A DNA stretch of 38,798 bases from a virus (Duplodnaviria > Caudoviricetes), in IMG/VR virus record IMGVR_UViG_3300015370_000029, positions 1-38,798 of that record, one strand, 5' to 3'. The position numbers were made by a program, and so were the translations under genes. Positions within the stretch are counted from its first letter, which is position 1, and each line of letters begins with the position of its first letter. The notes under the pieces are model-generated. The model saw only the letters and a program-made list of their open reading frames with translations, made no database searches and was not told the DNA's origin. This document shows, in pieces, positions 26 through 37,445 of the stretch.

Positions 26-220
26 GTGATGAGGAAGAAAACGGGACCGAAGCCGAGGGGCTATGTCAAGGTGTTGGTGAATATCCCTGCCGCATATCTG
101 GAGTTGATGAAGATAGAGAACGAGAAGTGCGGCGGGTTGAACCCGGTGAGTGAGCAGATCAGGACAGCCATTCGCGGGAAGTTATGTGGATTGATATATA
201 TCAGTCTACTCAATCGCTAG
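26..220 (+). CDS. Small DNA-binding protein, ribbon-helix-helix-like
   Basis: Basic N-terminus (RKKTGPKPRG), beta-strand VKVLVNIP, then two helices (VSEQIRTAIR). The stop TAG overlaps the GTTAGGT core site at 220. Confidence 0.5.
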   Translation: MMRKKTGPKPRGYVKVLVNIPAAYLELMKIENEKCGGLNPVSEQIRTAIRGKLCGLIYISLLNR

Positions 221-232
221 TTAGGTGCTAAT

Positions 233-481
233 ATGCAAATTGATATTGAATTTCACGAAAGAATCGGCGGCATCCAAATTGCCATGGTCAAAGTTGGTAA
301 CACCATGGTTGTCATGGAGCAAAAAGATTGGCTTGAATTTGCCCATGGAGTTATCCGCGAAATAGAAACGCACCTAACAAAGCGTGCAGCGGACGGGGCT
401 TGCTGCTCGTCCTGTGGAAGTAAGTTGGTCAACGGCGTTTGCGTATTCCATGGGTGTCCCGTGGTAACGCCCCGCCGCTAA
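233..481 (+). CDS. Cassette 1 ORF, hypothetical; the C-terminal ~36 aa are encoded by the attC site
   Basis: ORF track; starts 13 nt after the start of the core site GTTAGGT; lower GC than the structural genes. Confidence 0.6.
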   Translation: MQIDIEFHERIGGIQIAMVKVGNTMVVMEQKDWLEFAHGVIREIETHLTKRAADGACCSSCGSKLVNGVCVFHGCPVVTPRR

Positions 482-496
482 CGCAAACCGTTGGTT
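372..496 (+). mobile_element. Integron attC site 1
   Basis: R'' ACCTAAC (372-378) and R' GTTGGTT (490-496). Arms GCGTGCAGCGGACGGGGC / GCCCCGCCGCTAACGC pair with two extra unpaired bases in the left arm. Confidence 0.85.
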
Positions 497-509
497 GATA
501 GGAGGCACA

Positions 510-647
510 ATGGCAAAGTTTTGGTGTTGGTTATTCGGTCATAAGTTTTGCGAATACTCAGAATTTTCACAAAAACATAATAACCCCGCTTGGGTACATT
601 ACTGTTCGCGTTGCTGTGTAAAATTCCATAAGATAGTTCGCACCTAA
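510..647 (+). CDS. Cassette 2 ORF, 45 aa, DUF1660-like (C-x-LFGHK ... C-x-RC) small phage protein
   Basis: Manual translation MAKFWCWLFGHKFCEYSEFSQKHNNPAWVHYCSRCCVKFHKIVRT. RBS GGAGG at 501-505. Stop TAA lies inside R'' ACCTAAC. Not in the ORF track. Confidence 0.7.
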   Translation: MAKFWCWLFGHKFCEYSEFSQKHNNPAWVHYCSRCCVKFHKIVRT

Positions 648-666
648 CACCGCGTTACCGTTGGGC
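642..666 (+). mobile_element. Internally deleted attC site 2 (25 nt)
   Basis: ACCTAAC-ACCGCGTTACC-GTTGGGC: both R boxes present, L boxes and stem missing. Confidence 0.7.
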
Positions 667-695
667 GGCTCCCTTATAGCCAGAAAGGTTTTGAA

Positions 696-914
696 ATGAA
701 TAAAGTTCTTTACTCATCAACCGATGAAATTGAATGTAAATTGAAAACAAAGGTTGTCATCAATGAGGCTGGGATTTGGCTTATGCAGAATGATGAGGGC
801 GTATTGGTTGCGGATTGGCAAGCAATCGAAGCCGCCCAACACAAGATGCACCCGACCAAAAACGGGCGCGGCAAATCTGCCAAAGTTTCTACTCCCGCCG
901 TTTTTGGCGGGTAA
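696..914 (+). CDS. Cassette 3 ORF, hypothetical; reads through its attC
   Basis: ORF track; AGAAAGG RBS upstream; stop TAA lies in the right arm of attC3. Confidence 0.65.
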   Translation: MNKVLYSSTDEIECKLKTKVVINEAGIWLMQNDEGVLVADWQAIEAAQHKMHPTKNGRGKSAKVSTPAVFGG

Positions 915-929
915 TCTAAGCCGTTAGGT
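834..929 (+). mobile_element. Integron attC site 3
   Basis: R'' GCCCAAC (834-840) and R' GTTAGGT (923-929). Arms AGATGCACCCGACCAAAAACGG / CCGTTTTTGGCGGGTAATCT have the same two unpaired positions as attC1. Confidence 0.85.
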
Positions 930-934
930 GCTTC

Positions 935-1111
935 GTGAAAATAATTTGTGGTATGCGTCAAAAAGGTATCTGGTGGTTTCGTGTGTTCGGAGTTGGTCTT
1001 TCGTGGAAGGACATCCGTTTACACCCGCTCATATTTTCGGAGCGCAATGGGTATCGTAAAAAGTTGCGTATTGGTTGGTGGATATTTCACTATCTTCCAC
1101 GCGGCGGGTGA
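935..1111 (+). CDS. Cassette 4-like ORF, 58 aa Trp-rich hypothetical protein; no downstream attC
   Basis: Manual translation (GTG start) MKIICGMRQKGIWWFRVFGVGLSWKDIRLHPLIFSERNGYRKKLRIGWWIFHYLPRGG, directly after R' of attC3. Confidence 0.55.
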   Translation: MKIICGMRQKGIWWFRVFGVGLSWKDIRLHPLIFSERNGYRKKLRIGWWIFHYLPRGG

Positions 1112-2128: not shown

Positions 2129-2698
2129 ATGAAGAACGTTTGCGGTGCGAAACTTCGAGGCAAGGATCGAACCTGCCAGAAGCCGCCGATGGCAAACAAG
2201 CGGAGATGCAGGCTGCATGGCGGTGCAACTCCCAGCGGACCCGATAGCACGAACTATAAACACGGACGGTATGCGCTGGTTTTCAGGGGCAGACTGGCTG
2301 AGAAATTTGCAAGCGCATCGGCAGACGAGGAACCTTTGGATCTGCTGCCTGAATTAGCGGTGCAGAGATCGTTGTTGGCGCAGTACGTGGAGGTGGTATC
2401 GGGCAAGAAGACCGTGAAAGCCGGCGACGTGAAGAACGTCAGTGCTTTGGCGGAGGATGTGGTGCGGACGGCGGCGACGATTGCGAAGGTGCGCAACGAC
2501 ACAGCGTTGACGATTGCCGAGGTGAGATTTATCCAAGCCGGCATGATGAGATTATTGGAGAAATATGTCACTGATCCAGACCGACAGCGGAATTTTATCG
2601 AGGAGCTCAGTAGACTTGTTCCTGGCAGGTATGATGCCGGCGGCGGCGTCTCCACAGTTCTTCCCGTTGGTGCAGGAAAAGCAAGCCAGGTTGCTTGA
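2129..2698 (+). CDS. terS: Terminase small subunit with HGGxSTG-type N-terminal domain
   Basis: CGAK...C...RCRLHGGATPSG...NYKHGRY motif; directly upstream of TerL. Confidence 0.75.
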   Translation: MKNVCGAKLRGKDRTCQKPPMANKRRCRLHGGATPSGPDSTNYKHGRYALVFRGRLAEKFASASADEEPLDLLPELAVQRSLLAQYVEVVSGKKTVKAGDVKNVSALAEDVVRTAATIAKVRNDTALTIAEVRFIQAGMMRLLEKYVTDPDRQRNFIEELSRLVPGRYDAGGGVSTVLPVGAGKASQVA

Positions 2699-5063
2699 GG
2701 CGTGCGGATTTCCATGTGTGCCGGCGGGGGAGCATGAGTTCAGCGGGCAGATGATTCCGATGTGGCAGGCGACCGGGGAGCGCAAGCAGGCAAAGGCGAG
2801 TCTGATCGGGTTTGGCGGGGCGGCATACGGCGGCAAGAGTTACGGCATGTTGATCATGGCTCGTGTGGCAGCGGAATTGTGGCCGGGCGTGCAGATCGCC
2901 TACTTCCGCAGGACGTACCCTGAACTGGACGGACCGGGAGCCAGCATCCAGAAAGCATATGGAGTCTTTGGGGATGTGGCAAAGGATACGAACGGCGGCA
3001 AGGAGTGGCAATGGGCGAATGGGAGTACGGTGTTCTTTCGTCACTGCCAGAACGAGAAGGATGTGTACAGTTATCAGAGCCAGCAGATTGACATCCTGTT
3101 GTTGGACGAGGCAACACACTTTACCTGGTTCATCGTGGATTATTTACTAACCCGTAACCGGGCGAGTGGGGATGTAAAGACGACAGGCTTCAGACCTTTT
3201 GCAGTGATGCCCAGCAACCCGGGTAATATCGGACATCAGTGGTACTCGCAGGTGTTCGACGTGGAGCAGAAGTCCGGCAAGCATGAGAGTTTGAAACTGG
3301 TACAGAACCCGAACGGTAAGAATGCGCAGGTGTATTTCATCCCAGCCTTTCTGGAGGACAACCAGATCGGGGTGGCAGCTGACCCGGAGTATGAGAGCCG
3401 GCTGACACAAAGAGACCCGGAGATTGCGAGAGCGCTGCGATACGGCGATTGGAGTCTATTTGCAGGGCAGGCATTCCCTGGTTGGACAAAGGATCGAATT
3501 GCATGTGAACCGTTCGAGATCCCTGAACATTGGGCGAGGTGGCGGGCGTTGGACTATGGTTTTGTGCATCCGTGGGCGGCGGGTTGGTTTACGGTGGACC
3601 CTGCGACGAAGCGTTTGTATGTGTATAAGGCAGTCAAGAAGAGCGAACTGACCGACACACAGCAAGCCGTGTTGATGAACTCCATGACCGCAGCCGATGA
3701 GCGCATTACTGTGACGTATGCCAGCCCGGATATGTGGGCACGGAAGACGCAAGGTAACAAGGTCTTTACCAGTGTGGACGAATACAAAGCGGAAGGGGTG
3801 CTGCTTACTCGAGCCGACAACGAACGGTTGAATGGCAAGCGTAAGATTGACCGCTTGTTATTCGATGCGCTGGACGGCAAGCCGATGGTCCAGGTGTTTG
3901 AGCCTTACTACGAAGTGTTCGCCTGCATGAGGACGTTGGTGCGGGATGATCATAACCCAGAGGATGTGAAGAAGGTGGATGGTGACGACTGTATAGCGGC
4001 TGGAACATTGGTCACAACCGATAAAGGCGACAAGCCGATTGAGGAGGTGATTGCAACAGATATGGTATTGACACGCAAAGGATACAAAATGGTAACGCGT
4101 GCATGGCTAAAACAAAAGAACTCGGTAGTTTATAAAGCAACCTTTAGTGATGGTCGTTATGTAATTGGGACTGGCAACCATCCTGTTTACGTTGTAGGTC
4201 GTGGTTTTATAAATCTTGACACTCTTAGTCATGGTGATGTGATCATCACGAAGGAGAATATATTATGCCAACCGACACAGTTATCTTTAATGGATACAAG
4301 TTTAGACGGTACCCAAGCTCTGAAAACAAGACGCATCAGAGATATTATTCGCCGAGTGGCAATTACAGGCAGCGCGGTATTGGTTTCCTTCATCAAGAAG
4401 TTTGGAAGAGCGTGTATGGAGAAATTCCAGAAGATCATCACATTCACCACAAGGATCACAACCCACTTAATAACGATATTACAAACCTTGAATGTGTCAA
4501 TAGGCATGACCATCTATCCGCTCATTCAAAACAACATGCGCCTGGCGTCGAGCACATGGATAGAATACGCAAGTTGGCAGCAAAGTGGCACAAGTCGAAA
4601 GTTGGCAGGCAATGGCATTCAGAGATCACAAAGTCTGCATGGAAAAATCGCGTGTTACAAACGCTTGCTTGTAACTTTTGTAAAAAGGAATATCAAGTGC
4701 TCTTCAAAAGAAAGGCTCACTATTGCTCTGCGCTTTGCAGGTCTGCGGCGCGGCGGAGAAGCGGCAAGGATGATGTTTCGAGAACTTGTCCAGTTTGCGG
4801 AAAAGATTTTGTTACAAATAAATATGATGACACACAGACATGCTCACGATTGTGTGGTGCGAGTTTGCGACGTTCAAAAGCTCGATAATCACCAAGACGT
4901 ATACAACCTAACTGTGATGGACGAACACGAGTTCTTTGCGAACGGCGTGCTTGTTCATAATTGTTATGACATGCTGAGATACGGATTATCGAACATAAAC
5001 CAACCGACCAAGACGCAGACCAAGACCGTGCATCCTGCGAGAGGAGTGAAGGCGATATGGTAA
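2631..5063 (+). CDS. terL: Terminase large subunit, intein-containing (probable start 2631)
   Basis: Walker A GGAAYGGKS, Walker B LLLDEATH, PSNPG coupling motif, nuclease LDYG and DD..C/YDMLRY motifs. Confidence 0.95.
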   Translation: MMPAAASPQFFPLVQEKQARLLEACGFPCVPAGEHEFSGQMIPMWQATGERKQAKASLIGFGGAAYGGKSYGMLIMARVAAELWPGVQIAYFRRTYPELDGPGASIQKAYGVFGDVAKDTNGGKEWQWANGSTVFFRHCQNEKDVYSYQSQQIDILLLDEATHFTWFIVDYLLTRNRASGDVKTTGFRPFAVMPSNPGNIGHQWYSQVFDVEQKSGKHESLKLVQNPNGKNAQVYFIPAFLEDNQIGVAADPEYESRLTQRDPEIARALRYGDWSLFAGQAFPGWTKDRIACEPFEIPEHWARWRALDYGFVHPWAAGWFTVDPATKRLYVYKAVKKSELTDTQQAVLMNSMTAADERITVTYASPDMWARKTQGNKVFTSVDEYKAEGVLLTRADNERLNGKRKIDRLLFDALDGKPMVQVFEPYYEVFACMRTLVRDDHNPEDVKKVDGDDCIAAGTLVTTDKGDKPIEEVIATDMVLTRKGYKMVTRAWLKQKNSVVYKATFSDGRYVIGTGNHPVYVVGRGFINLDTLSHGDVIITKENILCQPTQLSLMDTSLDGTQALKTRRIRDIIRRVAITGSAVLVSFIKKFGRACMEKFQKIITFTTRITTHLITILQTLNVSIGMTIYPLIQNNMRLASSTWIEYASWQQSGTSRKLAGNGIQRSQSLHGKIACYKRLLVTFVKRNIKCSSKERLTIALRFAGLRRGGEAARMMFRELVQFAEKILLQINMMTHRHAHDCVVRVCDVQKLDNHQDVYNLTVMDEHEFFANGVLVHNCYDMLRYGLSNINQPTKTQTKTVHPARGVKAIW
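3990..4961 (+). mobile_element. Intein (324 aa) in the TerL nuclease domain
   Basis: Block A CIAAGTLVTT, block B GTGNHPVYV, block F DVYNLTV, block G FFANGVLVHN followed by +1 Cys. Removal restores DGDD-CYDMLRY. Confidence 0.95.
4265..4888 (+). CDS. HNH endonuclease with C-terminal Zn-finger repeats, nested out of frame within the intein
   Basis: LHQEVW...IHHKDHNPLNNDITNLECV (HNH_3-like), CxxC/YCSxxC pairs, own RBS AAGGAG at 4251-4256. Confidence 0.9.
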   Translation: MPTDTVIFNGYKFRRYPSSENKTHQRYYSPSGNYRQRGIGFLHQEVWKSVYGEIPEDHHIHHKDHNPLNNDITNLECVNRHDHLSAHSKQHAPGVEHMDRIRKLAAKWHKSKVGRQWHSEITKSAWKNRVLQTLACNFCKKEYQVLFKRKAHYCSALCRSAARRRSGKDDVSRTCPVCGKDFVTNKYDDTQTCSRLCGASLRRSKAR

Positions 5064-8043: not shown

Positions 8044-11000
8044 ATGGCAAAACAATGGTTAGGTGAAAGGAAGATGGCGCGCCTCCAGGGGCATGAGGAG
8101 GATTTCTATCTTGATGAAAAACGCCCGCAATATAAGTGGGTGGGTGAAAGGAAGATGGCAGCCCGGCGGAAACAATGGGAGAAAGACCGAGACCTTGAAC
8201 AAGCCGGGCTGCTGAATTATCAAAATAGAGGTATGAGTGCGGCTGAGATCGCCGCGCGGTCTACGGCTGCGGGGCAACCTCAACTGCCGATCCAGTACAA
8301 GACAGCGGACAACGGGCTGGTGGTGAAACAACAGAGGTATTCGTGGTGGAATGGGGCGCCGGTTGAGAGTGTCAGTAAGCCAACTTATTCAGAGGACTAT
8401 ACACAACCGCAGTTGAATCCATACGCGGGGGATTTTGACTGGTCACGTTTGACGGTGGAGCAGAAGAAAGCCATCACCGGTAATTCAGAATTCAGCATGT
8501 CGAAGGTGATCGCGCCCGGACAGCAGGGCATGATCCTGAGTGATAAGGGATTGGGGTTGTGGAGTAAAAATCAAAGCGGGACATACGGCAGCCAGGACCT
8601 GCAATGGTGGCAGCCGGTGGCATTCTCGGTACTCTCTGACCCGAAGACCACGCCGTTGGTGCAGGGAGCGGCGATGACATTGCTGACGGGCGGACAAGCC
8701 TTACCGCTGGCGATAGGCATAACGGGGCTGGCATACGGCGCGCAACTGAAGGGTAACGAGAATGCCTCGCTCAATGCGGTTGGATCCTTCTCGGAGTGGA
8801 TGTTGAAACCTTTCATGGCTGGCGCATTTGCGCTGGAGCAGGTGGGGGGAGTGATTGATTATCTAGTCGGTGGCAAAGATACAAGTTTTTATAACGTGCC
8901 GGCAGTAGAAGCATTCAAGACCATCCAGGCGATCAACGAAGCGAATAGACTGGAACAATTTATCAGCGACCCGAAGTTGAGGAAGGCGGTTTGGGAAGCC
9001 GGCAAGGTCTATTATGAGTCACTGGCGGGCAAGCAACAGCCTTATACAAAGGTACTTGAAAAACTACTGGACGACATGCCATTGGCGCAGAAGAAGGATA
9101 CGATCAAGGCGATCAATGCCTTCCTGCCACTGGTGAAGGAGGAGAACCAGGTCTGGGTGTTGGGTGAGAACGAGACTGTGCCTGTGCAGCCGGGGTATAC
9201 GCTGGACGATGCGGTCAAACGGATATTGAATGGGGAGAGCGCGGATGCGTTATGGACGGAATATCAGCGGGTGTATGGCATCTCGGGAGTAGCCAGCGAC
9301 TTCATGCTGAGTGCGATCTATGACCCGTTGAATGTATTGCCGACTGTGGTGGGTAGAACCAAAGCGAAGATCGCCGAGACCAGGGTCAAGAGTTTGGCGG
9401 GGTTGAGTGAGTTGAGCGAGGTACAGGCGGCGCGGCTCAAGATCGAAACGATCAAGGCGGACATCTACCGAGCTACACCTGGCATGTCGGGCATGGTAAT
9501 ACCGTGGAACGAAGCCAGCAGAAGGTTTAGGAAGTTGATCGTGGATGTGCCGGATGTTGCAAAGCATTTGACCTGGGGGGAGCGGATCATTGCGGGGGTG
9601 ACACCGGATGGGAAGGTGAAGGAACTGCTGCCGAATGCGCAGAAGGTGAAGGGCGCGCCGTTATCTCAAAACCTGCCGATAGCCTGGAAGAGATTTTGGT
9701 CACTACAACCCGAAGCCAGGGCTAATTTGTTCCGCGACAAACTGACAGAGAATATACAGGTGGTGTTCGACTGGTCGCTTGCCACGGGGAAGACCGACCC
9801 GAAGGCGATGATAGACGTGATCGAAGCGGCAAGCAAGATGGACATGGTCACGCTGCGGGAGGCAGGCGCGGAATTCATGGGCAGTCCCGAAGCATACACG
9901 ACCATCGGCGCGGCGCGGGATGTGCTGCCGAAACTGAGAGCGGATCAACTGGCATACGAGGCGCTGGCGAGAAACCGCGAACAGTTCCACAATATAGCCG
10001 GCATGATCGGGGACGACCCGAAGCTGGTATTGGAAGGGTTCTTGAAGGACGACGCGCGCCCGATGTTCGAGCGCTTGAAGGAAAAACTACGGGGCACAGA
10101 CACGCCAGAGGCGAAGGCATTATTGAAGGCGATTGACGAGGGCAAACTGACAGCGGGCGAATTGAAGCAGACCTTCAAGCCGCTGGAGACAGCGCCTTTG
10201 AACGACATCGAATTTATGGCACGCATCAATGAGCGCATGTACGACCACCTGAAGGATTGGGGCAAGGAATACTTTCAGGTAAAGGATCATAACGTTTGGG
10301 ATGAAAGTCTGAGGCTGTTGAAAGGGGCGCAGTCCCTGCTGTTATTGGATGTGAACCCGTACAGCATCCTGAACGATTTTGTGAACGAGCGGATCATGCT
10401 GTTGACAGAGGGGACGCTGGGATTGACCAGCGGGAAAACGATAGACGCTTTCAAGCAGGAGTTTGGGGTGTGGCCTGAGCTGGCGGGCGGGTCTGGATTG
10501 TTGGGAGATATTGCAACAGAGAAGACAAAACTCTCGGCATCCATGAAGGAGAACAAGGGCATCGTCGGTAAGGCGGCGGACAAGCTCAACCTCTTCCGAA
10601 GCTACCTGCCGAGGTCAGCGGCGGCGAGTCGGTTCAACGCGGCGCATCACCAGCAGATGATCTATTCGGGAGTCAAGGAATATTGGGGGAGAAACTGGAT
10701 AGAGGGCAGGGGCTTTGACCGGATGCCTGCCTCGCTCGAGGCGCGGTTGAGGGAATACAACATGGACCCGCAGTTGGTCTACCGCAACGCGCGCTCGATC
10801 TTGAAACCCGAACAATTGGAAATCTTGAAGACGCGCGCCACCAGCCATGACATTGGGAATTACATAGCAGACGCGGCTGAGAAGGTAGGCAAGACGCCGG
10901 GTGAACTGACCGCCCTGATGGATAGGATGGGGGTGGTGGATGAACTGCGCCAGGGGTTGGAGAAAGCAGACACGCCAGCGAAACGGGATAAGGTCTTCGA

Positions 11001-14000
11001 TGGGGTGGATCAGAAGGTACAGGACTATATTGACCGGCGGATCGCGCAGGAGATACCCGGCAAGATACAGGATTACATTGATAAGATCAAGACCGAGGCG
11101 CACGGCGGGGCGATGCAGGTTTTCAACGAAGTGGCGTTGCAGACCTTTGAAACGCGCCTGGAAGTGGATAAGATTTGGGACGAGGCTTATGCAAAAGCGG
11201 CAGAGGTTGATTTTGAAATAGGACGGGTGATCAAAGGCGAGGCGGCAAGACAAGCCGACACCGTATGGCGCAGGACACAGACACGGCAGGCGATGCTTTA
11301 TACGGGCGTGGCAGAAGGGCTGGGGTTCAAGGATGAGTTCAGGCTGAATTACCTAAAGTCATTGGGTGATCAGCAGACCATCCTACGCAATTATTTTCAA
11401 GAGAAGAGCCGGGCAATCGAGAGATATTTCAACACCGAGTATACGAGCAGGGAGGCGCGCAGCGCGGAGTGGTATACGCTGGAAGCGGAGTTGAATACAA
11501 GATTTGCGGAAGAGCAAAGCAAGGTCTTGAAGATCCAGGAAGGCATGAACGACCTGTTCGTGGATGAGATGCGCGCGAAGTACGGGGAGCCGGCGGGGGT
11601 GATGGCGAATGCCTGGGTGACGAAGACGCTGGCAGCCTCGACGGGCATCCATGAGATGATCGTGGCGTTCAGGGATTCAATCAAAGGGATGGATCCTGAG
11701 CAGAGGGCAAATGCGTGGAAGCGGTTCAAGCCGGAGTTTCAGGCTGCGTATTATGAGCGGACAAAGGTGGACATGGCGGGGGCGGCGGAGTTGTGGAAGG
11801 GGGAGGAGAGCCCACCCCCTGACCCCCTTCGTCCTTCGGACACTTCCCCCAAATCGGGAAGCGCATCCGATTTAGGGGAAGAGGTGTCAATAATCGGAGA
11901 AGTGCCGGCAAAGGAAACACCGACTGCTAAGGAGTTGGCGGAGGCGCAAAAGCAGAGAAGGGTGGAAGCTGCCAGGCAGAGGGCTGAGAGTCTGGCTCCC
12001 ATTTGGGAGGTGGCAGAGCGATACCCATACCTGGACGCGCCATTCAACCGCAACGTTGATAACGTCTCTTTGCTTGCGATCTTGCGCAAGGAGGAATACG
12101 GCGGCATTCGTGATCTTAGTTTGGACGACCCGCGCCTGACGCCTGAGTTGGTGAGCAGCGTGTTGGAGGCGCGGAGACAGATCACGGAAAGGATCACTGA
12201 GACGCCTGTCCGTATGCAACAAGCGAGTGAAGCAAGAGCCGAGATCGAAAGGCTGAACAAAGCGCGCAAGAATATGACGCCGCCAACGGTCAAGAAAATC
12301 AAAGGCGGGGGAGCGGAGATCAAGTTTGCGGATGGCAGTAAAAACATTCTCAGCGCCGAAGAAGTGGCGCAGAGCGGCGGATTGGATGGAGTAAAGCAGG
12401 AAGTGTTGCGCGCGCAAAACAGCGTGATAGACAGCGAGATCGCGCTAAACCAGCGCAGGTTGGATATGGCTATGGATGGGGTGTTGTTGGAGGCGGCTCG
12501 TATCAGCATTTCAGAAGTAGAGGGACGGCTGAGGGAGTTGGAGGCGCAATACATCGGCTTGAAATCCGACCGCGCGCACCTGGGTGAATTCCAAAAACAA
12601 CTGATCGAGATACAGGATAACCTGATCGTGTTGGAGCAGGCTGTGCCGGATGACGCGCCGAGAGCGCTGCAAGCGCAGTTGATCACAACGCAGGAGAAAA
12701 TCAGCAAGCGGCTGGCAGTGTTGGAAGATTACATAAAGGCGCAGGAGATCGTCGGGTTTGAGCGCGCATTGGAGACCGACCCTGAATCACCGCTCTTCGA
12801 GGAAGCGCCGAGCGACCCACGGGCATTGTTCAAGGATGGCGGAGACCTGCCACTGTTGGCTCCGGGGGCATACGATCAATTAGCCAGCCGGATGGATGCG
12901 ACCAAGATATTCGAGGACGGGTGGAGCGACCAGATCAGGCCGGCATTGGAAGCGATGAAGGAAAGCGCGAACAGTCCAGAACGGCGTTACACCTTCAAGG
13001 ACATGGACGCGCAGACACAGAGGGAACTCAATCAATACCTGGGGACGTTGAGCGGCAAGATGGCAAGCGCCAAACACGCAGCTAGTAAATGGGGCGAGGT
13101 GAATGCGGAGTACGGCTTGCTGAACTATGACCGCCAGTATGGGTTCGATAAGATATTTAGCGCGTTCGTGCCATATGAGTTCTTTGGAACGCGCAGCGCG
13201 GCGAACTGGATGGCGCGGATCATGGACAGGCCGGCATTCGTCTCGCAGTATGTGCGATATCTGAACCTGCGCAAGACCTACGAGAACGACCTGCCGGAAC
13301 GGATGCGTGGGAAACTCTGGCTGCCGACGCCCTTCATGCCAGATTGGGCGGGGGATGGGGTGTGGTTCAACCCGACCTACCAATTGGTGCCGTTCACGCA
13401 GTTCATCCAGCCGTTACAAGCCTATAAACGCGACAATCAAAACCTGATCAACAATGCCATGTATGTCCTGCGGGATATGGCAGAAGCCGACCCGAACAGC
13501 AAGGGGGCGGTTGAGAACGCCATGCAGACACAGAGCGGTCCTATTTGGGAGCGGGCGCTGGCGCAGGCAAAGGCGGAGAATGAGAACACAAACAGCGGGG
13601 CGGATTACTTCTCGATGTTGTTCTCGCCGGCTTTGTATATGACCATCCCGTATTATCTGGCGACCGGGAAGAAGCTGGGCGGGATCAATACCTCGTGGCC
13701 TTCCGGGCAATTGCCGATCACTAAAGTGGGGTCCGCAATGGAAACAGCCTTCAAAGGCACGTCCTCAGAGTGGATCGGGGATGTTGCCGGGCTGCTGGCT
13801 AGACCTGAGAATTACGCGCGCAAGCAATTGAGTTTGAGTGAGTTTGGGGAGTGGGGCGAGTATTACATCGAGCGGCAGTTGGTGAACATGGCGGCGGAGG
13901 ATGGCTACGATCCAAAGGAAGTATACAAGGCGTTGATCGAGAAGACAGGTCCGCTGTACGAAGAGGCGACCAACCGCGTGCGCTACGAACTGATGTTGAA

Positions 14001-14904
14001 GGTGCCGGGCATGGCTCCGTTGTATGCGGCGGCTCACGATGCCTCGCTGGATAAGATAGTTGGGTCGCTGCTGACTTCGCTCTATCCTGCCGGGATACTG
14101 CCAGCCGCCGAGATGGAATACAGGGGTTTGAAGCAGGAATTCAACGAGGCGTGGAAAGCCAAAAATAACGGCAACGACGAGCCGATGGATAAATTCTGGG
14201 ACGATCACCCTGAATATTCTGCGCGCCTGGCATTGCGTAAGGACCCGGAAGAACGGATGCAGCAATTCCTTGTCTCCGAGGTGTGGGATGCTTACGGGGT
14301 ATTAGGAGCGACAGATAGGAAACAGGCGGTAGCCGAGCTTGGTTTGCAGGAATTCTTTGATGGTGAACTTGGCACAGAATACACGATGGAGCAGTTAGTA
14401 ACGTGGGTGCGCGGGTTGAAGGGCATGGTCCCGAAGACGCCTGTGACTGAGCCGATGTTGAGCCAGCCCGCACCGCAGATCAATTACTACGACAAAGCAG
14501 TGACGATGGTGACGGATGAGTATTTCAGCCAGCGGACGAAGAAGTTCCCGAATTTTTACGAGGAGCAGACGGGCTTTTATGCACTGCCGAAGAGCGAGCG
14601 CAATGCCTATCTTTTGAAGACGCCCGGGTTGAAGGCGTATTGGGATTGGAAGGACGCCTGGTACAAGAAGTATCCGCAGTACGTGCCTGTGTTCAACGGG
14701 CAGGTATTCAAGCAGGTGGATACAAGCGGGTGGCCGCCAGGGTTGATGGATTATGTGATCAGCTATGCCTACACTGGTAAGAAGATGCCGAGCGGCGCGA
14801 TGAAGGCGCTGGAGCAGCAGTGGATCGTGGAGGGGATGCCGATGGATGACTTGAAATCGTGGCTGGATAATGTTGTTGCGCCGGCTATGATGTATGGAGA
14901 ATGA
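8044..14904 (+). CDS. Giant (2286 aa) putative internal virion/DNA-ejection protein
   Basis: Very long helical ORF in the structural module with a hydrophobic stretch near aa 205-235. No tape-measure periodicity or catalytic motif recognised. Confidence 0.6.
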   Translation: MAKQWLGERKMARLQGHEEDFYLDEKRPQYKWVGERKMAARRKQWEKDRDLEQAGLLNYQNRGMSAAEIAARSTAAGQPQLPIQYKTADNGLVVKQQRYSWWNGAPVESVSKPTYSEDYTQPQLNPYAGDFDWSRLTVEQKKAITGNSEFSMSKVIAPGQQGMILSDKGLGLWSKNQSGTYGSQDLQWWQPVAFSVLSDPKTTPLVQGAAMTLLTGGQALPLAIGITGLAYGAQLKGNENASLNAVGSFSEWMLKPFMAGAFALEQVGGVIDYLVGGKDTSFYNVPAVEAFKTIQAINEANRLEQFISDPKLRKAVWEAGKVYYESLAGKQQPYTKVLEKLLDDMPLAQKKDTIKAINAFLPLVKEENQVWVLGENETVPVQPGYTLDDAVKRILNGESADALWTEYQRVYGISGVASDFMLSAIYDPLNVLPTVVGRTKAKIAETRVKSLAGLSELSEVQAARLKIETIKADIYRATPGMSGMVIPWNEASRRFRKLIVDVPDVAKHLTWGERIIAGVTPDGKVKELLPNAQKVKGAPLSQNLPIAWKRFWSLQPEARANLFRDKLTENIQVVFDWSLATGKTDPKAMIDVIEAASKMDMVTLREAGAEFMGSPEAYTTIGAARDVLPKLRADQLAYEALARNREQFHNIAGMIGDDPKLVLEGFLKDDARPMFERLKEKLRGTDTPEAKALLKAIDEGKLTAGELKQTFKPLETAPLNDIEFMARINERMYDHLKDWGKEYFQVKDHNVWDESLRLLKGAQSLLLLDVNPYSILNDFVNERIMLLTEGTLGLTSGKTIDAFKQEFGVWPELAGGSGLLGDIATEKTKLSASMKENKGIVGKAADKLNLFRSYLPRSAAASRFNAAHHQQMIYSGVKEYWGRNWIEGRGFDRMPASLEARLREYNMDPQLVYRNARSILKPEQLEILKTRATSHDIGNYIADAAEKVGKTPGELTALMDRMGVVDELRQGLEKADTPAKRDKVFDGVDQKVQDYIDRRIAQEIPGKIQDYIDKIKTEAHGGAMQVFNEVALQTFETRLEVDKIWDEAYAKAAEVDFEIGRVIKGEAARQADTVWRRTQTRQAMLYTGVAEGLGFKDEFRLNYLKSLGDQQTILRNYFQEKSRAIERYFNTEYTSREARSAEWYTLEAELNTRFAEEQSKVLKIQEGMNDLFVDEMRAKYGEPAGVMANAWVTKTLAASTGIHEMIVAFRDSIKGMDPEQRANAWKRFKPEFQAAYYERTKVDMAGAAELWKGEESPPPDPLRPSDTSPKSGSASDLGEEVSIIGEVPAKETPTAKELAEAQKQRRVEAARQRAESLAPIWEVAERYPYLDAPFNRNVDNVSLLAILRKEEYGGIRDLSLDDPRLTPELVSSVLEARRQITERITETPVRMQQASEARAEIERLNKARKNMTPPTVKKIKGGGAEIKFADGSKNILSAEEVAQSGGLDGVKQEVLRAQNSVIDSEIALNQRRLDMAMDGVLLEAARISISEVEGRLRELEAQYIGLKSDRAHLGEFQKQLIEIQDNLIVLEQAVPDDAPRALQAQLITTQEKISKRLAVLEDYIKAQEIVGFERALETDPESPLFEEAPSDPRALFKDGGDLPLLAPGAYDQLASRMDATKIFEDGWSDQIRPALEAMKESANSPERRYTFKDMDAQTQRELNQYLGTLSGKMASAKHAASKWGEVNAEYGLLNYDRQYGFDKIFSAFVPYEFFGTRSAANWMARIMDRPAFVSQYVRYLNLRKTYENDLPERMRGKLWLPTPFMPDWAGDGVWFNPTYQLVPFTQFIQPLQAYKRDNQNLINNAMYVLRDMAEADPNSKGAVENAMQTQSGPIWERALAQAKAENENTNSGADYFSMLFSPALYMTIPYYLATGKKLGGINTSWPSGQLPITKVGSAMETAFKGTSSEWIGDVAGLLARPENYARKQLSLSEFGEWGEYYIERQLVNMAAEDGYDPKEVYKALIEKTGPLYEEATNRVRYELMLKVPGMAPLYAAAHDASLDKIVGSLLTSLYPAGILPAAEMEYRGLKQEFNEAWKAKNNGNDEPMDKFWDDHPEYSARLALRKDPEERMQQFLVSEVWDAYGVLGATDRKQAVAELGLQEFFDGELGTEYTMEQLVTWVRGLKGMVPKTPVTEPMLSQPAPQINYYDKAVTMVTDEYFSQRTKKFPNFYEEQTGFYALPKSERNAYLLKTPGLKAYWDWKDAWYKKYPQYVPVFNGQVFKQVDTSGWPPGLMDYVISYAYTGKKMPSGAMKALEQQWIVEGMPMDDLKSWLDNVVAPAMMYGE
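11822..11881 (+). repeat. Dispersed hairpin repeat type A, in-frame in the 2286-aa gene
   Basis: ACCCCCTTCGTCCTTCGGACACTTCCCCCAAATCGG...CCGATTTAGGGGAAG. Confidence 0.85.
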
Positions 14905-27160: not shown

Positions 27161-28654
27161 TTATGGAAGGAAGGTGAGGGTGATGGCGGTGGGGGTGATG
27201 GTGATGCGCTGGAGAATGTGGCAGAGGTGGGTGTTGACTTCCTGGGCGGGGGCGGTGAGGAGGTAGGCAGGGATTTTATTGAGGAGGGTGGAGAGATCGT
27301 CGAGGGCGGAGAGGCGTTCGGCACGGCGGGAGGCGGCGAGGGAGGTGTTGGTGAGTTGGGATTCTATTTCAGCGAGACGCACATCCAGGCTGGAGACACG
27401 GGAGGTGTAATCTGCAAGGGGCAGGGAGCCAGCTTCATAGGCTTCGATGAGGCGGTTACGGCGGGCGGTGAGATCGGCGGCGGTTTCTGCCAGGTGGGGG
27501 GACTGCTGGGCAGGAGCGGGGAGTTGAATGTTTTCGAGATCCTGCAATTCGAGGACGAGTTGAGCGGCGACGCGGGGGAGGAGGTCGGTATCCAGGATGT
27601 TGACGTGAGCGCGGTGATCTTTACAGACCCAGCGGCGGCGGTGTGGCGCCATGGCGCCATTGTATTTGGCGTAGACACGCGCGCCGCAGATGCCGCAGTA
27701 GAGCAGGTTGGAGAGGCGGTGAGTGCGCTTGCCTGTGTATTTGCGTCCACGGCGGGAGAACTCAGCATCAATGCGGAGCTGTGTGGCGGCATCCCAGAGC
27801 GGGATGTGCGCGCCTGTGCCTTTGACAATGCGCGAGGGTGGGTTATTGATAAAGGTGACGTGCCCAGTTCGAGGGTCGGTCGAGCGGCGTGTGATCCCGA
27901 AGTGGAGTTCGCCGCAGTAGAAGCGGTTGGTCATAATGTGGCGGGTGATCACATCCGTCCAGCGTGATCCGCCGGAGGGTGTGCGGATAGAAAGATCGTT
28001 GAGGTGATGGGCGACCTGCCAGAGGGATTGTCCGGCGAGGAAGAGGTCTTTGATCTTGATGACGATATCGGCTTTGGCGGGGTCCTGGGCGGGGATGGCG
28101 TTTGGGTCGAACTCCATGCCGGGGGGTTTGCGGTAGCCGTAAGGGGCGCGTCCCTTTGGGAGTCCTTTTTGGGAGATGCGGCGGGGCATACCGAGTTTAT
28201 AGCGGCGGCGGAGGGCGGCGATCTCGGTACGGGAGGTGAAGCCGGCGACGAACTGGAGGGTGGAGGCGGTTTCGTTTGAGTCGTATTGATCGGGGGGGAG
28301 GGGTTCGACGGGTTGGGAGATGGAGTAGATTTGGATGCCGTAGGCGGAGAGGGTTTTGGCGATGGGGTCGAGCAGTTCACGCAGGCGGGTGTAGTCGTAG
28401 AGGGTGAGAACGTCGAACTCGTTATGCTGGGCGGAGTTGAGCATGAGGGAGAGGGCCGGCATGGCGACTTCGGCATCACGGAGATTTACGAAACGGGTGC
28501 GGCTTTCTCCTGGGACAATGTAAGGTCCGCTGGTTTCCGTCCATCCTTTTGAAACTGCCGCAGTGCGACACTTGGCTTCCTGTTCTGAAAGAGAAACCTT
28601 GTCGTCTGTGGCTTGAGCCTTTGAACTAACTGCGCACCAAATTGCAAATCTCAT
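27161..28654 (-). CDS. Large serine recombinase (phage integrase)
   Basis: N-terminal AVSSKAQ...SLSEQ, APYGY, NRFYCG recombinase domain, LSNLLYCGICG Zn ribbon, coiled coil. Confidence 0.9.
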   Translation of the reverse strand: MRFAIWCAVSSKAQATDDKVSLSEQEAKCRTAAVSKGWTETSGPYIVPGESRTRFVNLRDAEVAMPALSLMLNSAQHNEFDVLTLYDYTRLRELLDPIAKTLSAYGIQIYSISQPVEPLPPDQYDSNETASTLQFVAGFTSRTEIAALRRRYKLGMPRRISQKGLPKGRAPYGYRKPPGMEFDPNAIPAQDPAKADIVIKIKDLFLAGQSLWQVAHHLNDLSIRTPSGGSRWTDVITRHIMTNRFYCGELHFGITRRSTDPRTGHVTFINNPPSRIVKGTGAHIPLWDAATQLRIDAEFSRRGRKYTGKRTHRLSNLLYCGICGARVYAKYNGAMAPHRRRWVCKDHRAHVNILDTDLLPRVAAQLVLELQDLENIQLPAPAQQSPHLAETAADLTARRNRLIEAYEAGSLPLADYTSRVSSLDVRLAEIESQLTNTSLAASRRAERLSALDDLSTLLNKIPAYLLTAPAQEVNTHLCHILQRITITPTAITLTFLP

Positions 28655-31560: not shown

Positions 31561-31778
31561 CGAAACGGAAGAGAAGGTTTAGTGAGCGGGCGCGGGAGGG
31601 GATCGGTGAGTTGGTGTTGGCTGTGATGGATTGGGACCCCAGCCTGACCCCCCTGTCACCGAGTACGGTGACATCCCCCCAAATGCTGGCGCATTTAGGG
31701 CGAGAGGTTGAGAGCAGTGATGGCAATGATAAACCTGAGCGAAGACGAGTTGCGAGAGCAGAGAAAGTACCTGTCTGA
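31557..31778 (+). CDS. Hypothetical protein containing an in-frame repeat
   Basis: ATGA coupling; TPLSPSTVTSPQ shared with 31043-31312. Confidence 0.4.
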   Translation: MTKRKRRFSERAREGIGELVLAVMDWDPSLTPLSPSTVTSPQMLAHLGREVESSDGNDKPERRRVARAEKVPV

Positions 31779-32133
31779 CGAGTACCGGAAAATGCAGGAC
31801 GCGGATCAACTGGCGAGGACGGTGGCTGAGATCGCGGACGAGAATGACGGGATCAGGCGGTGTGTGCAGCTGGAGGGCGAGTCGTCGTTTTATGAGTGGT
31901 GGAACGAGGATGCGCTGGTGCCGGCATACAGTTCGCGCAGGCTGCGGATCAGGATGTTGGAGGAGAGGATTGCAACTCTGACAGCCCCACCCCCAGCCCC
32001 TCCCCAAATGGGAGAACGCCATTTGGAGAGGGTGGCAAGAGCGGAAGAAGCGGATGTGGAAAGTAAACATGATGCGAGTGTAGCCCATGAAAAAGCCGAC
32101 GGTGAGAAAAGCCAGCAAGAAGCGGAAGATTAG
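31720..32133 (+). CDS. Hypothetical protein
   Basis: Acidic helical ORF with an in-frame repeat at 31985-32032. Confidence 0.5.
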   Translation: MAMINLSEDELREQRKYLSDEYRKMQDADQLARTVAEIADENDGIRRCVQLEGESSFYEWWNEDALVPAYSSRRLRIRMLEERIATLTAPPPAPPQMGERHLERVARAEEADVESKHDASVAHEKADGEKSQQEAED

Positions 32134-32419
32134 CCAGAGACCCCACCCCGGACCCCTCCCCAAACGGAGAGCGCGTTTGGAGAGGGGGGTGAAGAAGAAG
32201 GTAAGGATGACTGATAAACCCAAGCCGTGGCCGTACCAGGCGGCGGAGGCAAGAGACAGAAGCGCGGAGGAAGCGCAGGTGATCGTGAGACAGGCGGAAG
32301 AGGCGCTGGAGATGACGAACGACGCGGCGGTCTTGAAGAAAATCGGAAGGATATTGTCGAGCGCGAATGTGATCTTGAGGTTACTTGAAAGCCAGGGCGC
32401 GAAGACGAGACCGATGTGA
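32087..32419 (+). CDS. Hypothetical protein (alternative start 32207)
   Basis: ORF track; helical C-terminal part. Confidence 0.5.
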   Translation: MKKPTVRKASKKRKISQRPHPGPLPKRRARLERGVKKKVRMTDKPKPWPYQAAEARDRSAEEAQVIVRQAEEALEMTNDAAVLKKIGRILSSANVILRLLESQGAKTRPM

Positions 32420-32435
32420 GGATAATGTGAGAAAA

Positions 32436-32678
32436 ATGAGAATAAGTAAACGGGTTCCCCAGGGTGTAGAAGTACCAAGATTTTATGGAATAGCCTATTG
32501 GGATTATTGGTCAGATTATGGTGTTTGCTATCCTGTTCCATTAAATCTTATGGTTCGGATTGGCAGATGGGCTTGGCATGAGTCGATCCGCTTTCGCCCG
32601 ACAAAACTGGACAAGATGATGAGAAAAGCATACGAAACCGGAATAGCTTTTGGGAGGGAACAATGTTCTGGCTCTTGA
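32436..32678 (+). CDS. Hypothetical protein, lower GC
   Basis: P.FYG.AY.D...CYP.PLN motif-like segment. Confidence 0.5.
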   Translation: MRISKRVPQGVEVPRFYGIAYWDYWSDYGVCYPVPLNLMVRIGRWAWHESIRFRPTKLDKMMRKAYETGIAFGREQCSGS

Positions 32679-32860
32679 GAAAAGAAAGTGGCACGAAGCA
32701 ATACGGGTTGTTGACTGCGGATGACGCGCGGGAGTTAGAGCGGATGGCGAGGCGTTTGAAGACCGCGGTGCATGGGAAGGGCGCGCAGGAGAAACACCTG
32801 GATTTGAGCGGTCACAAGATCGAAGTGGCAAAGAGGTATGGAGCGGTAGAGAAAGTGTAA
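32663..32860 (+). CDS. Hypothetical protein
   Basis: GGGAGGG RBS; ORF track. Confidence 0.45.
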   Translation: MFWLLRKESGTKQYGLLTADDARELERMARRLKTAVHGKGAQEKHLDLSGHKIEVAKRYGAVEKV

Positions 32861-32869
32861 GTATAACGG

Positions 32870-32943
32870 TGCGGGATGGAGCAGAGGTCAGCTCACGTGG
32901 CTCATAACCACGAGGTCGTGTGGTTCGAATCCCACTCCCGCAA
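32870..32943 (+). tRNA. tRNA-Met(CAT), initiator-like but atypical
   Basis: Acceptor TGCGGGA/TCCCGCA, D arm GAGC/GCTC, anticodon stem CGTGG/CCACG with loop CTCATAA, TTCGAAT T-loop; no encoded CCA. Confidence 0.85.
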
Positions 32944-32973
32944 CTAGGAAGTAATTTGTAAAAGGAGTCCCAA

Positions 32974-33228
32974 ATGAACGATCGTGAGTTGCAAATCCCG
33001 AAGCAATTGGATGAACTGCAAAATGTAATTGAAAGTCTGGGTAAAGCCGTAGAGAGTTTGTCCATACGGCTGAATAAAGTTGCTTTGCAAGAAGGTCCCC
33101 AACTAGAAGGCGGTGGTGACAAAGTTCCTATACTTTGCGAATACGCTAATAACCTTGCGAATAAAGTGGGACAAATTCAACGCCTTCTTGATGTTGTTGT
33201 CTCATTAGAAAGTCGTCTTGAGTTATAA
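32974..33228 (+). CDS. Coiled-coil hypothetical protein
   Basis: AAGGAG RBS; heptad pattern. Confidence 0.6.
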   Translation: MNDRELQIPKQLDELQNVIESLGKAVESLSIRLNKVALQEGPQLEGGGDKVPILCEYANNLANKVGQIQRLLDVVVSLESRLEL

Positions 33229-33242
33229 GGAAAGGAGGCGGC

Positions 33243-33380
33243 ATGAGTATTTTGGGTGTGGTTGTGTTTTTCGGATTTGTGTCTGTGGGTATCTTATTCT
33301 ATGAATACCCTGACGAGTGGAGACGATGGCTTTTATTGCTGCTTGCTTATGGTTTTGTTATTTTCCCGAAAGGATGGTAG
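33243..33380 (+). CDS. 45-aa membrane peptide (paralog 1)
   Basis: Manual translation MSILGVVVFFGFVSVGILFYEYPDEWRRWLLLLLAYGFVIFPKGW; AAGGAGG RBS. Confidence 0.65.
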   Translation: MSILGVVVFFGFVSVGILFYEYPDEWRRWLLLLLAYGFVIFPKGW

Positions 33381-33382
33381 CG

Positions 33383-33538
33383 ATGAAACTTAGAAAGTTT
33401 AGCGTGATAGTTGCAAGGGTTTTCGGATTGGCGGGTGTGCTGATCTTATTCTTTGGATACCCGGAAGATTGGCGGCGATGGTTTTTATTGCCGCTTGCGT
33501 ATGTTTTTATTGCTTATCCGAAAGGATGGTGGCGATGA
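33383..33538 (+). CDS. 51-aa membrane peptide (paralog 2)
   Basis: ILFFGYPEDWRRWFLLPLAYVFIAYPKGW aligns without gaps to paralog 1. Confidence 0.65.
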   Translation: MKLRKFSVIVARVFGLAGVLILFFGYPEDWRRWFLLPLAYVFIAYPKGWWR

Positions 33539-33627
33539 GTATACCCGGTGTGGTGCTGGTGCTGGTGATGACCGGCGTGGCGTTGTATTTTGATGGGCTG
33601 TGGAGGGTTTATGTCAAACGCTTATAA
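33535..33627 (+). CDS. 30-aa membrane peptide
   Basis: MSIPGVVLVLVMTGVALYFDGLWRVYVKRL; the N-terminus resembles paralog 1. Confidence 0.4.
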   Translation: MSIPGVVLVLVMTGVALYFDGLWRVYVKRL

Positions 33628-34126
33628 AAATACAACCGTCCCGATTGCGCGGTCACAGGAAGCGATCCGAAAGTTACTCATAAACTTTGGCGTGCGAGGC
33701 GTTCAGTTTTCGGAGGATTTTGAAACTCGAAACGTGAATGTCAAGTTTGCTAAAGAAGTAAATAAAACCATGCGAACTGTCAGCGTATCCATGGTCATTC
33801 CCGAAGCTCCGCCAGCCAAACGAAAACGAAGCGCAACCTATCGGCGCGGACGCATGGTTTACGGGAAACTGCCCCAGGAAAGGCAGGAACAAATGGCGCG
33901 GGCAACTTACCGAGCCTTACATGATTGGTTGAAAGCTCAATTTGTTGCCGTGGAATTTGGTCTACTCACATTTGAAGACGTGTTCCTGTCTCATTTTGAG
34001 TGGATATTGCCGAATGGCGTTGTGTCCACTGTCGGAGCAATGGTAAAACCGCGTCTCGAAACACGCTCAGAATTCATGCTTGAAGAGGGCGGGGTGACGG
34101 ACGGTGAAGTGGTGAATGAAAAATAA
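33611..34126 (+). CDS. Phage hypothetical protein
   Basis: AYKNTTVP..RSQ..I..LL..FG and RAL..WLKAQ..AVE.G...FEDVFL motifs; GGAGG RBS. Confidence 0.65.
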   Translation: MSNAYKNTTVPIARSQEAIRKLLINFGVRGVQFSEDFETRNVNVKFAKEVNKTMRTVSVSMVIPEAPPAKRKRSATYRRGRMVYGKLPQERQEQMARATYRALHDWLKAQFVAVEFGLLTFEDVFLSHFEWILPNGVVSTVGAMVKPRLETRSEFMLEEGGVTDGEVVNEK

Positions 34127-34165
34127 AATTGACAAAGTAATTCAAATCAAAAAGGAGAAGAGACA

Positions 34166-34735
34166 ATGGTATCAGTATATGATCTGTACGAATTTTATTT
34201 GGACGCCCATGACTTGAAGGACAAGGCGCATGTGGTGACGGTGGAGAGCGTGAAGGTGGATAGTGTGATCAACCCTCGCGCGCATAAGCCGGAGAAGAAA
34301 ATCATATTGCGCTTTGTGAACCGGCGCAAGAGCATGATCTTGAACAAGACGCAGGCGGGGGCGATGATGGAAATTGCAGGCACGGATGACTATAACAAAT
34401 GGAAGGGCGCGGAGGTGGTCTTGATCGCCGGGCGCGCGAGTAATGGCAGAGACACGATCGTGGTTACGACGCGGGAGAACTCGGGGGATATTGACCTGAT
34501 GTATCCGCACCAGGAGCAGAAGCCGGTTGAGCCGGCTGTCAATATTCCCAAAGAGTGGCTGGAAGCCAGGTGTGAAGAGGCGTTGGGTATAGCCGCGCAG
34601 AGATGGGGAGTGAGCAAGAAGGCGGCGTGGGATCGGATTGACAGGGCAGTGAAGACGGAGGCGTTGAGCGAGGTGCTGCCGAGGGAGGAGTTCAAGGAAT
34701 ATGTTGAGTCAATGGTATTAGCCCCCCTATCATAA
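34166..34735 (+). CDS. Putative ssDNA-binding/annealing protein with an extra C-terminal helical domain
   Basis: YLDAHDL...VTVESV...L.F...K.MILNKTQ...G.D...W.G..V.L core; AAGGAG RBS. Confidence 0.55.
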   Translation: MVSVYDLYEFYLDAHDLKDKAHVVTVESVKVDSVINPRAHKPEKKIILRFVNRRKSMILNKTQAGAMMEIAGTDDYNKWKGAEVVLIAGRASNGRDTIVVTTRENSGDIDLMYPHQEQKPVEPAVNIPKEWLEARCEEALGIAAQRWGVSKKAAWDRIDRAVKTEALSEVLPREEFKEYVESMVLAPLS

Positions 34736-34787
34736 GGGACACAGGAATGAAACTAGCGATGGCAAAGAAGAAAGAAAAGGCGGATGT

Positions 34788-35033
34788 ATGAGTTGGTTGA
34801 GTAATATCATGTTGTCGTTTTGGTCTTCACTGGTCGAATGGTTCCCGTGGAAACAGAAACAGAAACAGAAGAGAGCGCAGTCGAAGACGTATTTGGTGAA
34901 TGATTTTCACTTTCCCGGTAACGCGGCGCATAAGACAGAGCGCAACAAGGCGTATGCGGATCAACACCAGAAGGCGGCACACAACCGCAGACGGAAGACG
35001 AAGAAGGCGATGCGGAACTTGTATCACTTATAG
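34788..35033 (+). CDS. Basic hypothetical protein
   Basis: ORF track. Confidence 0.4.
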   Translation: MSWLSNIMLSFWSSLVEWFPWKQKQKQKRAQSKTYLVNDFHFPGNAAHKTERNKAYADQHQKAAHNRRRKTKKAMRNLYHL

Positions 35034-35044
35034 CGAGGTGCGCC

Positions 35045-35407
35045 ATGGAAGATGAATTGAAGACACGCTTGATGTGGCTGATGAAGACCTATCATGTAGG
35101 GCAGGGCAGGGCGATCAAGAAAAAGGATCTGCTGTTGAAGTTGTACGGCGTGCAGGCGGCAGCGGATGAGTCCTATAACAATTTGGATGACCGGGAACTA
35201 AGAGCGGCGATCCCGGAGATCAACCTGGCAGGGGGGTTGATCTGTTCGAGCGCGAGCAGCGGCTATTGGTGGGCTGCCAGCCTGGAGGACGGGTTGGAGG
35301 CGGCGGAACGGAATATGAACCGGGCATTGACGCAGTTGGAGAATGCGCGGAGGCTGGCGAAGAATTTGCAGGCTGAGTACGGCGGGCAGTTGGCGTTGAA
35401 GATGTGA
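35045..35407 (+). CDS. Winged-helix-like hypothetical protein
   Basis: H.G...AI...L...DRELRAAI..I...G.LICS....GYW pattern. Confidence 0.55.
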   Translation: MEDELKTRLMWLMKTYHVGQGRAIKKKDLLLKLYGVQAAADESYNNLDDRELRAAIPEINLAGGLICSSASSGYWWAASLEDGLEAAERNMNRALTQLENARRLAKNLQAEYGGQLALKM

Positions 35408-35409
35408 CG

Positions 35410-35465
35410 CCCCCCTGCCCTTCGGGCATCCCCCCAAATACCCTGCGGGATATTTGGGGGGAGAG
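35410..35465 (+). repeat. Dispersed hairpin repeat type A
   Basis: CCCCCCTGCCCTTCGGGCATCCCCCCAAATA...TATTTGGGGGGAGAG. Confidence 0.9.
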
Positions 35466-37443: not shown

Positions 37444-37445
37444 CC

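Follow-up and report, generated by a model that had tools for sequence, protein, structure and literature searches.

The window, that is, the whole stretch of 38,798 nucleotides that was analysed, is coextensive with a linear virus record (38.8 kb, 91% complete by CheckV) and, judging from its sequence, belongs to a temperate tailed phage. It carries a large terminase gene with an intein (2565-5063; Intein_splicing, E 2e-14), overlapped by a fall of the GC content to 0.43 at 4001-5000, together with portal, major head protein, GH25 endolysin, repressor, RusA-like, HNH and DUF5131 genes, a serine recombinase (serine integrase, 27161-28654) and, in the early region, a tRNA gene (32870-32943) that is the sole Rfam match in the window. 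An ORF of 2286 amino acids (8044-14904), located between the portal-region genes and the endolysin, gave no PHROGs or significant Pfam match, and the putative small terminase, used as query, retrieved one weak locus only. The early operon leaves the contig end and continues from base 1, and its final part is an array of small gene cassettes. The array region is closed by a terminator-like hairpin (1160-1200, + strand; a consensus match only), after which come membrane-protein and terminase genes. Just 3' of the array an extended -10-like element, TGCTATAAT (1117-1125, located by eye), precedes this hairpin by about 40 nt, and the two elements possibly correspond to a short transcript or to a late promoter. 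No consensus promoter that could act as Pc for the cassettes was found on the + strand of 1-1600.

The array contains two full attC sites, both on the + strand with the bottom strand as the folding one: attC1 at 372-496 (R'' 372-378, L'' 384-391, L' 476-482, R' 490-496) and attC3 at 834-929 (R'' 834-840, L'' 846-853, L' 909-915, R' 923-929). A third, internally deleted site, attC2 (642-666, + strand), retains R'' and R'. The window sites show the inverted arrangement R''/L''...L'/R' with AAC and GTT cores, and the spacers measure 5 and 7 nt in both full sites. The two extra unpaired bases that the original prediction had assigned to each full site are C387/A393 and C849/A855 of the top strand; in both sites they are 6 nt apart and correspond to a bottom-strand G and T. 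They agree with the attC definition in the available text of PMC2727003, which comprises an extrahelical G in L'', a T 6-8 nt further on, an unpaired central spacer and a variable terminal structure. A hairpin scan of the 38.8 kb yielded four loose and two strict matches, the strict ones being attC1 and attC3, against 0-3 loose and no strict matches in five shuffles. On the bottom strand, a covariance model trained on 35 bacterial sites recovered 372-496 at 66.5 bits and 834-929 at 53.7 bits (both E-values at or below 1e-13), and the deleted site that had been proposed at 642-666 came third of 12 model rows (11.8 bits, E 0.11). This test is only partly independent, because the left-arm pattern that served to collect the training sites was itself designed on the sites of the window; among these 35 sites 94% of the cells pair and the stem covaries, 12 of 24 pairs changing on both sides. 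Motif counts with patterns derived from the two sites of the window are circular and were not counted as evidence. The deletion at 642-666 is supported by metagenome run X1, since a contig of this run continues past 655 with a longer right-arm remnant. The attC sites at 372-496 and 834-929, and the deleted one at 642-666, are hence confirmed as real. In predictions, the bottom strand of attC3 folds well (z -3.5) and that of attC1 poorly in place (z -1.16). The predicted mean L-box pairing is 0.93 in attC3, whereas in attC1 it is 0.16 in place and 0.54 in the excised-circle form; the predicted medians are 0.84 for viral and 0.94 for host sites.

The four cassettes lie on the + strand and their ORFs start, as had been described, just past the GTT cores, 12-36 nt after GTT 220, 490, 660 and 923. 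Cassette 1 (220-489) encodes 82 amino acids (ORF 233-481) and its ends are exactly complementary (220-228 and 370-378), as foreseen. The last 34 or so residues, including a Cys-rich tail, are encoded in frame by attC1, and in the structure model the head is confident while the tail has a pLDDT of about 51-64. The head is common to six homologues whose tails are five other Cys-rich loops, one of them shared by two homologues, and four homologues with one common head diverge directly after the R'' codons. In cassette 2 (490-659; ORF 510-647, 45 amino acids) the ends are not complementary and the attC is the deleted one; the R' of attC1 in front of it (GTTGGTT) is non-canonical, one position off GTTRRRY, and has no complement in the cassette 2 R''. 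The proposal that this cassette is DUF1660-like holds as a weak likeness, but its 16.9 bits fall below the Pfam gathering score of 21.4. In runs X1, X3 and X4 the same cassette is preceded by other sequences. Cassette 3 (660-922; ORF 696-914, 72 amino acids) has ends complementary over 11 nt (660-670 and 830-840), again exactly as predicted, and about 25 C-terminal residues are encoded by attC3. The attC3-coded peptide is joined to other heads in all nine homologues aligned (ten were found), the heads of P0036 and P0038 being alike. Cassette 4 (923-1111; ORF 935-1111) has lost its 3' end and attC, and is likely joined, near 1093-1111, to what is left of an attC right arm. It is present intact, with its own attC and between other cassettes, in the phage record L027 (93% amino acid identity over 55 residues), and a 60% homologue without attC is found in L223.

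The contig is metagenomic and the array sits close to its end, and both circumstances invite the reading that the hairpins arose by chance or that host integron DNA was joined to the phage in a chimeric assembly. This reading is largely refuted, and we regard it as very improbable. Against it stand the covariance E-values, the contigs of separate studies that join the array to the phage flanks (395-2200 in run X2; 193-535 and 506-925 in run X3), and a cassette content and loop sequence unlike those of host arrays. In these metagenome data, which are assembled contigs and not reads, X1 may be the source sample of the window and X2-X5 belong to other studies. A blastn search of 200-1140 against the GenBank phage collection gave no match.

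Upstream of cassette 1 lies a small ribbon-helix-helix-like (RHH-like) gene (26-220, + strand), whose TAG stop codon (218-220) overlaps the G of a G/TT crossover. The stop is part of an attI-like entry site (208-226, + strand) formed by an L-box-like ACTCAAT (208-214), a 5-nt spacer and the R box GTTAGGT (220-226). The boxes of attI sites are separated by a 5-nt spacer. No hairpin precedes GTT 220, yet the content of the array switches there. An attI consists of an L box and a GTTRRRY R box (PMC12901181, available text). The original prediction was right about the attC architecture but, describing an attC cluster alone, missed the attI-like site; an array provided with such an entry site is therefore an integrase-less integron platform and not merely an attC cluster. 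Besides the protein of the window itself, 25 homologues of the 26-220 product were found, and 22 of them end at the same alignment column, an end fixed by the TAG of the attI-like site. The gene and the same site recur in L235, L236/L237 (one sequence), L238, L295 and L296; apart from them, L235-L238 show no blastn likeness to the window except for an attC arm. One homologue is named from a Chloroflexi genome. A ribbon-helix-helix fold of the product is a weak lead from modelling: two helices are predicted at a pLDDT of 60, MetJ and NikA-like proteins are among the closest named Atlas clusters, and the Foldseek rows, all three NikR, have E-values of 6-10. A Pfam search with the protein gave no match.

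The site was also ranked with a host-attI matrix made from 18 candidates out of 36 intI loci by a selection rule set after viewing the loci. It came 5th of the 1208 GTT sites, and the versions of L235, L236 and L238 would rank 1, the site of the window being more diverged than those of its relatives. By the L box alone it was 24th of 1208 and site 923 was 21st; because that rank is no better than the one of site 923, the sequence evidence for an attI is moderate and the evidence from usage is stronger. An exact attI pattern searched in viral contigs gave 0 matches.

The usage evidence comes from the sequences that follow the crossovers. In run X2, a contig that matches 188-222 is continued by another cassette-type start. 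The flank contig of run X3 (depth 78.6) stops at 222 and has two followers, an alternative one at depth 53 and cassette 1 at depth 5.7; an unbroken contig covers 506-925, the graph branches into two followers right after GTT 923-925, and an alternative path rejoins at 1093, although branches of a contig graph can link different phages that have 30 nt in common. Run X2 is without cover at 223-370 although the attC1 loop is present, a hole that alone proves nothing. The first cassettes behind the same gene and site differ among L235, L236/L237, L238, L295 and L296. Counting relatives and metagenome runs, eight different sequences follow GTT 220-222, the leaders of X2 and L296 being similar. The cassette content at the locus is hence variable in runs X2 and X3 and in the five contexts, as anticipated. 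In the assembled contigs of the X runs no cassette circle joints were seen. The first cassettes past the RHH-type site at L235:8190-8411 and L295:330-480 appear ORF-less or structured, and that of L235 bears a host-like attC of 129 nt.

The array could have been caught once by an IntI, or at a hotspot of the attG type, and have changed since then only by deletion and by homologous recombination at arms and flanks. The attC arms are nearly identical between phages, two attC sites of the window are deleted, exchanges of heads and tails at R'' could be driven by homology, and plain GWT sites suffice as insertion targets for IntI (10.1101/2022.09.11.507474, available text). However, eight sequences begin at one GTT, and the site is conserved well past GWT and resembles a host attI. 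Eight different followers with only three shared downstream bases need repeated site-specific insertion, and a single capture is therefore improbable.

The absence of an IntI from the phage, as originally noted, agrees with the TIGR02249 profile, which matched ordinary tyrosine recombinases in 14 of 14 controls and gave no match at E<=0.01 in the window. Unlike in a complete integron, no intI adjoins the array; with attC matches present and an IntI profile match absent, the window is by definition a CALIN, and one that would function as an integron whose integrase is outsourced. Hairpins of the attC kind are recombination sites for IntI and not for serine integrases, and since the sites of the window are such hairpins, the serine integrase at 27161-28654 was rejected as the acting enzyme. 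A further candidate was an intI lying unseen in the contig gap. L296 is syntenic with 31777-38691 and 29-226 of the window, and a single 91-aa gene spans there the cut point of the window; the last ORF of the window aligns weakly with residues 13-39 of its product (E 2.8) and the first codons of the window resemble its C-terminus. The gap is therefore probably about 44 codons (~130 nt), which is probably too small for an intI, and this candidate was rejected.

The enzyme would then come from elsewhere. A search with the attC motif gave 75 viral loci and, among the matches listed, 145 genome loci, 107 of them labelled Chloroflexota; these are loci and not independent genomes, and the Chloroflexota ones are mostly Anaerolineales. 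Since this attC type is mostly found in Anaerolineae, the host is likely an Anaerolineae bacterium, a deduction made from the attC type only. In L081 and L127, IntI genes above the TIGR02249 cut-off lie beside such attC sites; of the 201 Anaerolineae genomes sampled, 65 encode an IntI over this cut-off. The two host features proposed for examination, similar attC sites and an intI, are thus both present in this class. Hence, with a probability of roughly 0.7, the attI-like site at 208-226 and the four cassettes form a platform without its own integrase, recombined in trans most probably by the IntI of an Anaerolineae host, and the phage likely swaps its accessory genes via an integrase that it does not encode.

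Phages themselves are a second source of IntI. Fifty viral records with this attC type, mostly longer ones chosen among the 75 loci, were tested, and a full IntI was found in five. At the four loci read, the phage IntI gene is co-oriented with the cassettes and located at the end of early/replication genes, and an attI lies no more than about 20 nt from its stop codon. PHROGs virion genes occur in four of the five IntI-bearing records (G035 was outside that reading) and Terminase_6N in one. Record G026 (L284-L286) has two facing terminase/portal/capsid sets with the IntI array between them and may be a chimera or two joined or adjacent phages. In a tree of 20 rows, only 6 of them bacterial, the viral IntIs fall into three supported groups separate from the host enzymes, the largest being the one seeded by the query sequence used; near the IntI group L246-L249, on viral contigs, no attC of this type or attI was seen. 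Near-identical phage IntIs are followed by different first cassettes in the pairs L029/L250, L045/L227 and L063/L241. An attI just past the stop codon of a co-oriented phage IntI gene was seen in L224, L225, L226, L227, L239-L245, L250, L045 and L047, and several first cassettes behind phage IntIs encode DNA methyltransferases. An inverted repeat just upstream of the attI crossover was noticed by eye in L081, L127, L229, L232, L224 and L226.

The co-oriented IntI genes just upstream of attI and cassettes, the separate branching of the viral enzymes, the different first cassettes behind near-identical IntIs and the slight overlap of phage and host cassette pools would suit a supply of IntI mainly from co-infecting or resident IntI-encoding phages and not from the host chromosome. 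Such a supply is nevertheless unlikely for the window, though less so than a single capture. The site of the window fits the host-attI matrix, whereas that of the main phage IntI clade (L224) would rank 153, and host supply is favoured because of this misfit; the site of a smaller phage clade (L225) ranks 20, so that this clade may be a source. Moreover, 45 of the 50 records are without a full IntI, and about one third of the sampled genomes of the host class have one.

The phage-specific cassette pool suggested at the outset finds support, in the form of a phage-biased pool, in ORF lengths, reading into attC, gene content and little overlap. The longest ORF ending at or near the site reads into the attC in 70 of 114 viral rows (7 duplicates included) versus 7 of 99 host rows, with automatic ORF assignment and small samples; the host set was L077-L149 minus L077, L089, L091, L115 and L118, dropped as phage-like or atypical. 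The median cassette ORF measures 107 amino acids in viral and 179 in host arrays. DNA methyltransferase or Mom-like matches occur in 16 of 106 viral versus 0 of 97 host ORFs, after removal of duplicates, an intI ORF and an overlapping ORF. Five cassette pairs are common to different viral contigs at 87-97% identity, and one viral ORF family matches host cassettes beyond the attC-coded tails. For the ends of adjacent cassettes, viral arrays reach a complementarity of 5.6/8 (3.9 when shuffled; 60 pairs) and host arrays one of 7.3/8 (null 4.6); the phage arrays, with the lower value, are therefore more eroded.

A Cys2-Cys/His2 motif is encoded in the cassette frame by 16 of 50 long viral sites versus 2 in 100 other frames (p 3e-7), and by 2 of 50 loops in the genome set, both on L118. 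This 2.6-kb contig of a Chloroflexi MAG has Cys-coding attC loops of the phage type and is probably phage DNA. The Cys-rich loop tails are probably zinc-binding. Crossover at the R'' box is known for mutant attC sites (PMC2727003, available text); homologous exchange in the conserved attC arm explains the head/tail pattern equally well.

Phage CALINs, methyltransferase cassettes and the activity of IntI1 on phage attC sites were already established by Qi et al. (2023, PMC9892861). According to the available text, 10,705 genomes yielded 17 CALINs, three with unknown hosts and none with a host listed as Chloroflexota, and IntI1 recombined five of six phage attC sites in E. coli. Those CALINs are, like the window, attC clusters without intI in phages; they carry DNA methyltransferase cassettes, as do the relatives of the window, and one of them, in a Shewanella prophage, has an attI that recalls the attI-like site described here. 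They differ in that the same text does not describe strain-level cassette variation, a gene-embedded attI, translated loops or a phage-specific IntI clade, and in that its complete integrons derive from host chromosomal or class 1 integrons, unlike the phage IntI clades found here. The sedentary chromosomal integrons of Anaerolineae (L081, L127, L229, L232) share with the phage arrays the attC arms, the 5/7-nt spacers, the two extrahelical bases and a similar attI. Their sites are about 130 nt long with conserved loops, whereas phage loops are variable and mostly translated; host ORFs stop before the attC in 88 of 99 cases and are longer than phage ones, and host intI is divergent whereas phage intI is co-oriented with the cassettes. 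In inverted-integrase integrons intI also lies on the cassette strand (PMC13323075, available text), as in the IntI-bearing phage relatives; these are distinguished by an attI at most ~20 nt from the intI stop codon and by their location inside an early operon. Where the intI of the relatives stands before attI, the window has the RHH-like gene. At attG sites IntI likewise acts away from its own locus, but, in the available text of 10.1101/2022.09.11.507474, attG requires GWT only, while the site of the window is conserved, repeatedly used and attI-like. Synthetic attC sites placed inside coding sequence (PMC7439510, available text) likewise overlap protein-coding DNA but are engineered, whereas in phages the overlap is a natural one and common, with 70 of 114 viral cassettes showing it. 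A literature search short on subscription papers found no reports of Anaerolineae phage arrays, of a phage gene carrying attI or of natural Cys-coding attC loops. The window case adds within-sample switching at two crossovers, a gene-embedded attI of host type and phage IntI clades.

In the preferred reading, that of a platform served in trans, the attI-like site at 208-226 and the four cassettes that close the early operon would be the substrate of an integron integrase, which most probably comes from the Anaerolineae host. Fresh cassettes would enter at attI, an order suggested by the intact cassette nearest the entry and the decayed sites further along, and would be expressed by read-through from the early operon. 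The cassettes would supply small accessory proteins and, among the relatives, would frequently encode DNA methyltransferases or Mom-like enzymes, probably for counter-defence. Reading through the attC would place the loop under coding selection and give rise to the Cys-rich tails, which probably bind zinc; at the AAC of R'', attC tails would be re-paired with heads. The copy in the window may be largely frozen, since attC1 folds poorly in place and two of the four sites are broken. A broader scheme is offered tentatively, as somewhat less probable than its negation: Anaerolineae phages would run an integron economy of their own, based on the portable RHH-like gene with its attI or on a phage-specific co-oriented IntI at the end of the early operon, with a pool exchanged between phages but not with the host, and with new cassettes created from coding attC tails swapped onto heads at R''.

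Integrons are known as devices of bacterial adaptation and of defence against phages. Phages appear here to use integron chemistry for their own accessory genes, DNA-modification enzymes included, and the variation is visible inside one sample, whereas the phage cases published so far are rare and static. The genesis of new cassettes is stated to be unknown in the available text of 10.1101/030866. One attC on many heads and one head on several loops, joined at R'', provide a concrete substrate for this question and, if true, the exchange of tails at R'' would be a visible route, open to testing, by which cassettes arise and protein domains are shuffled.
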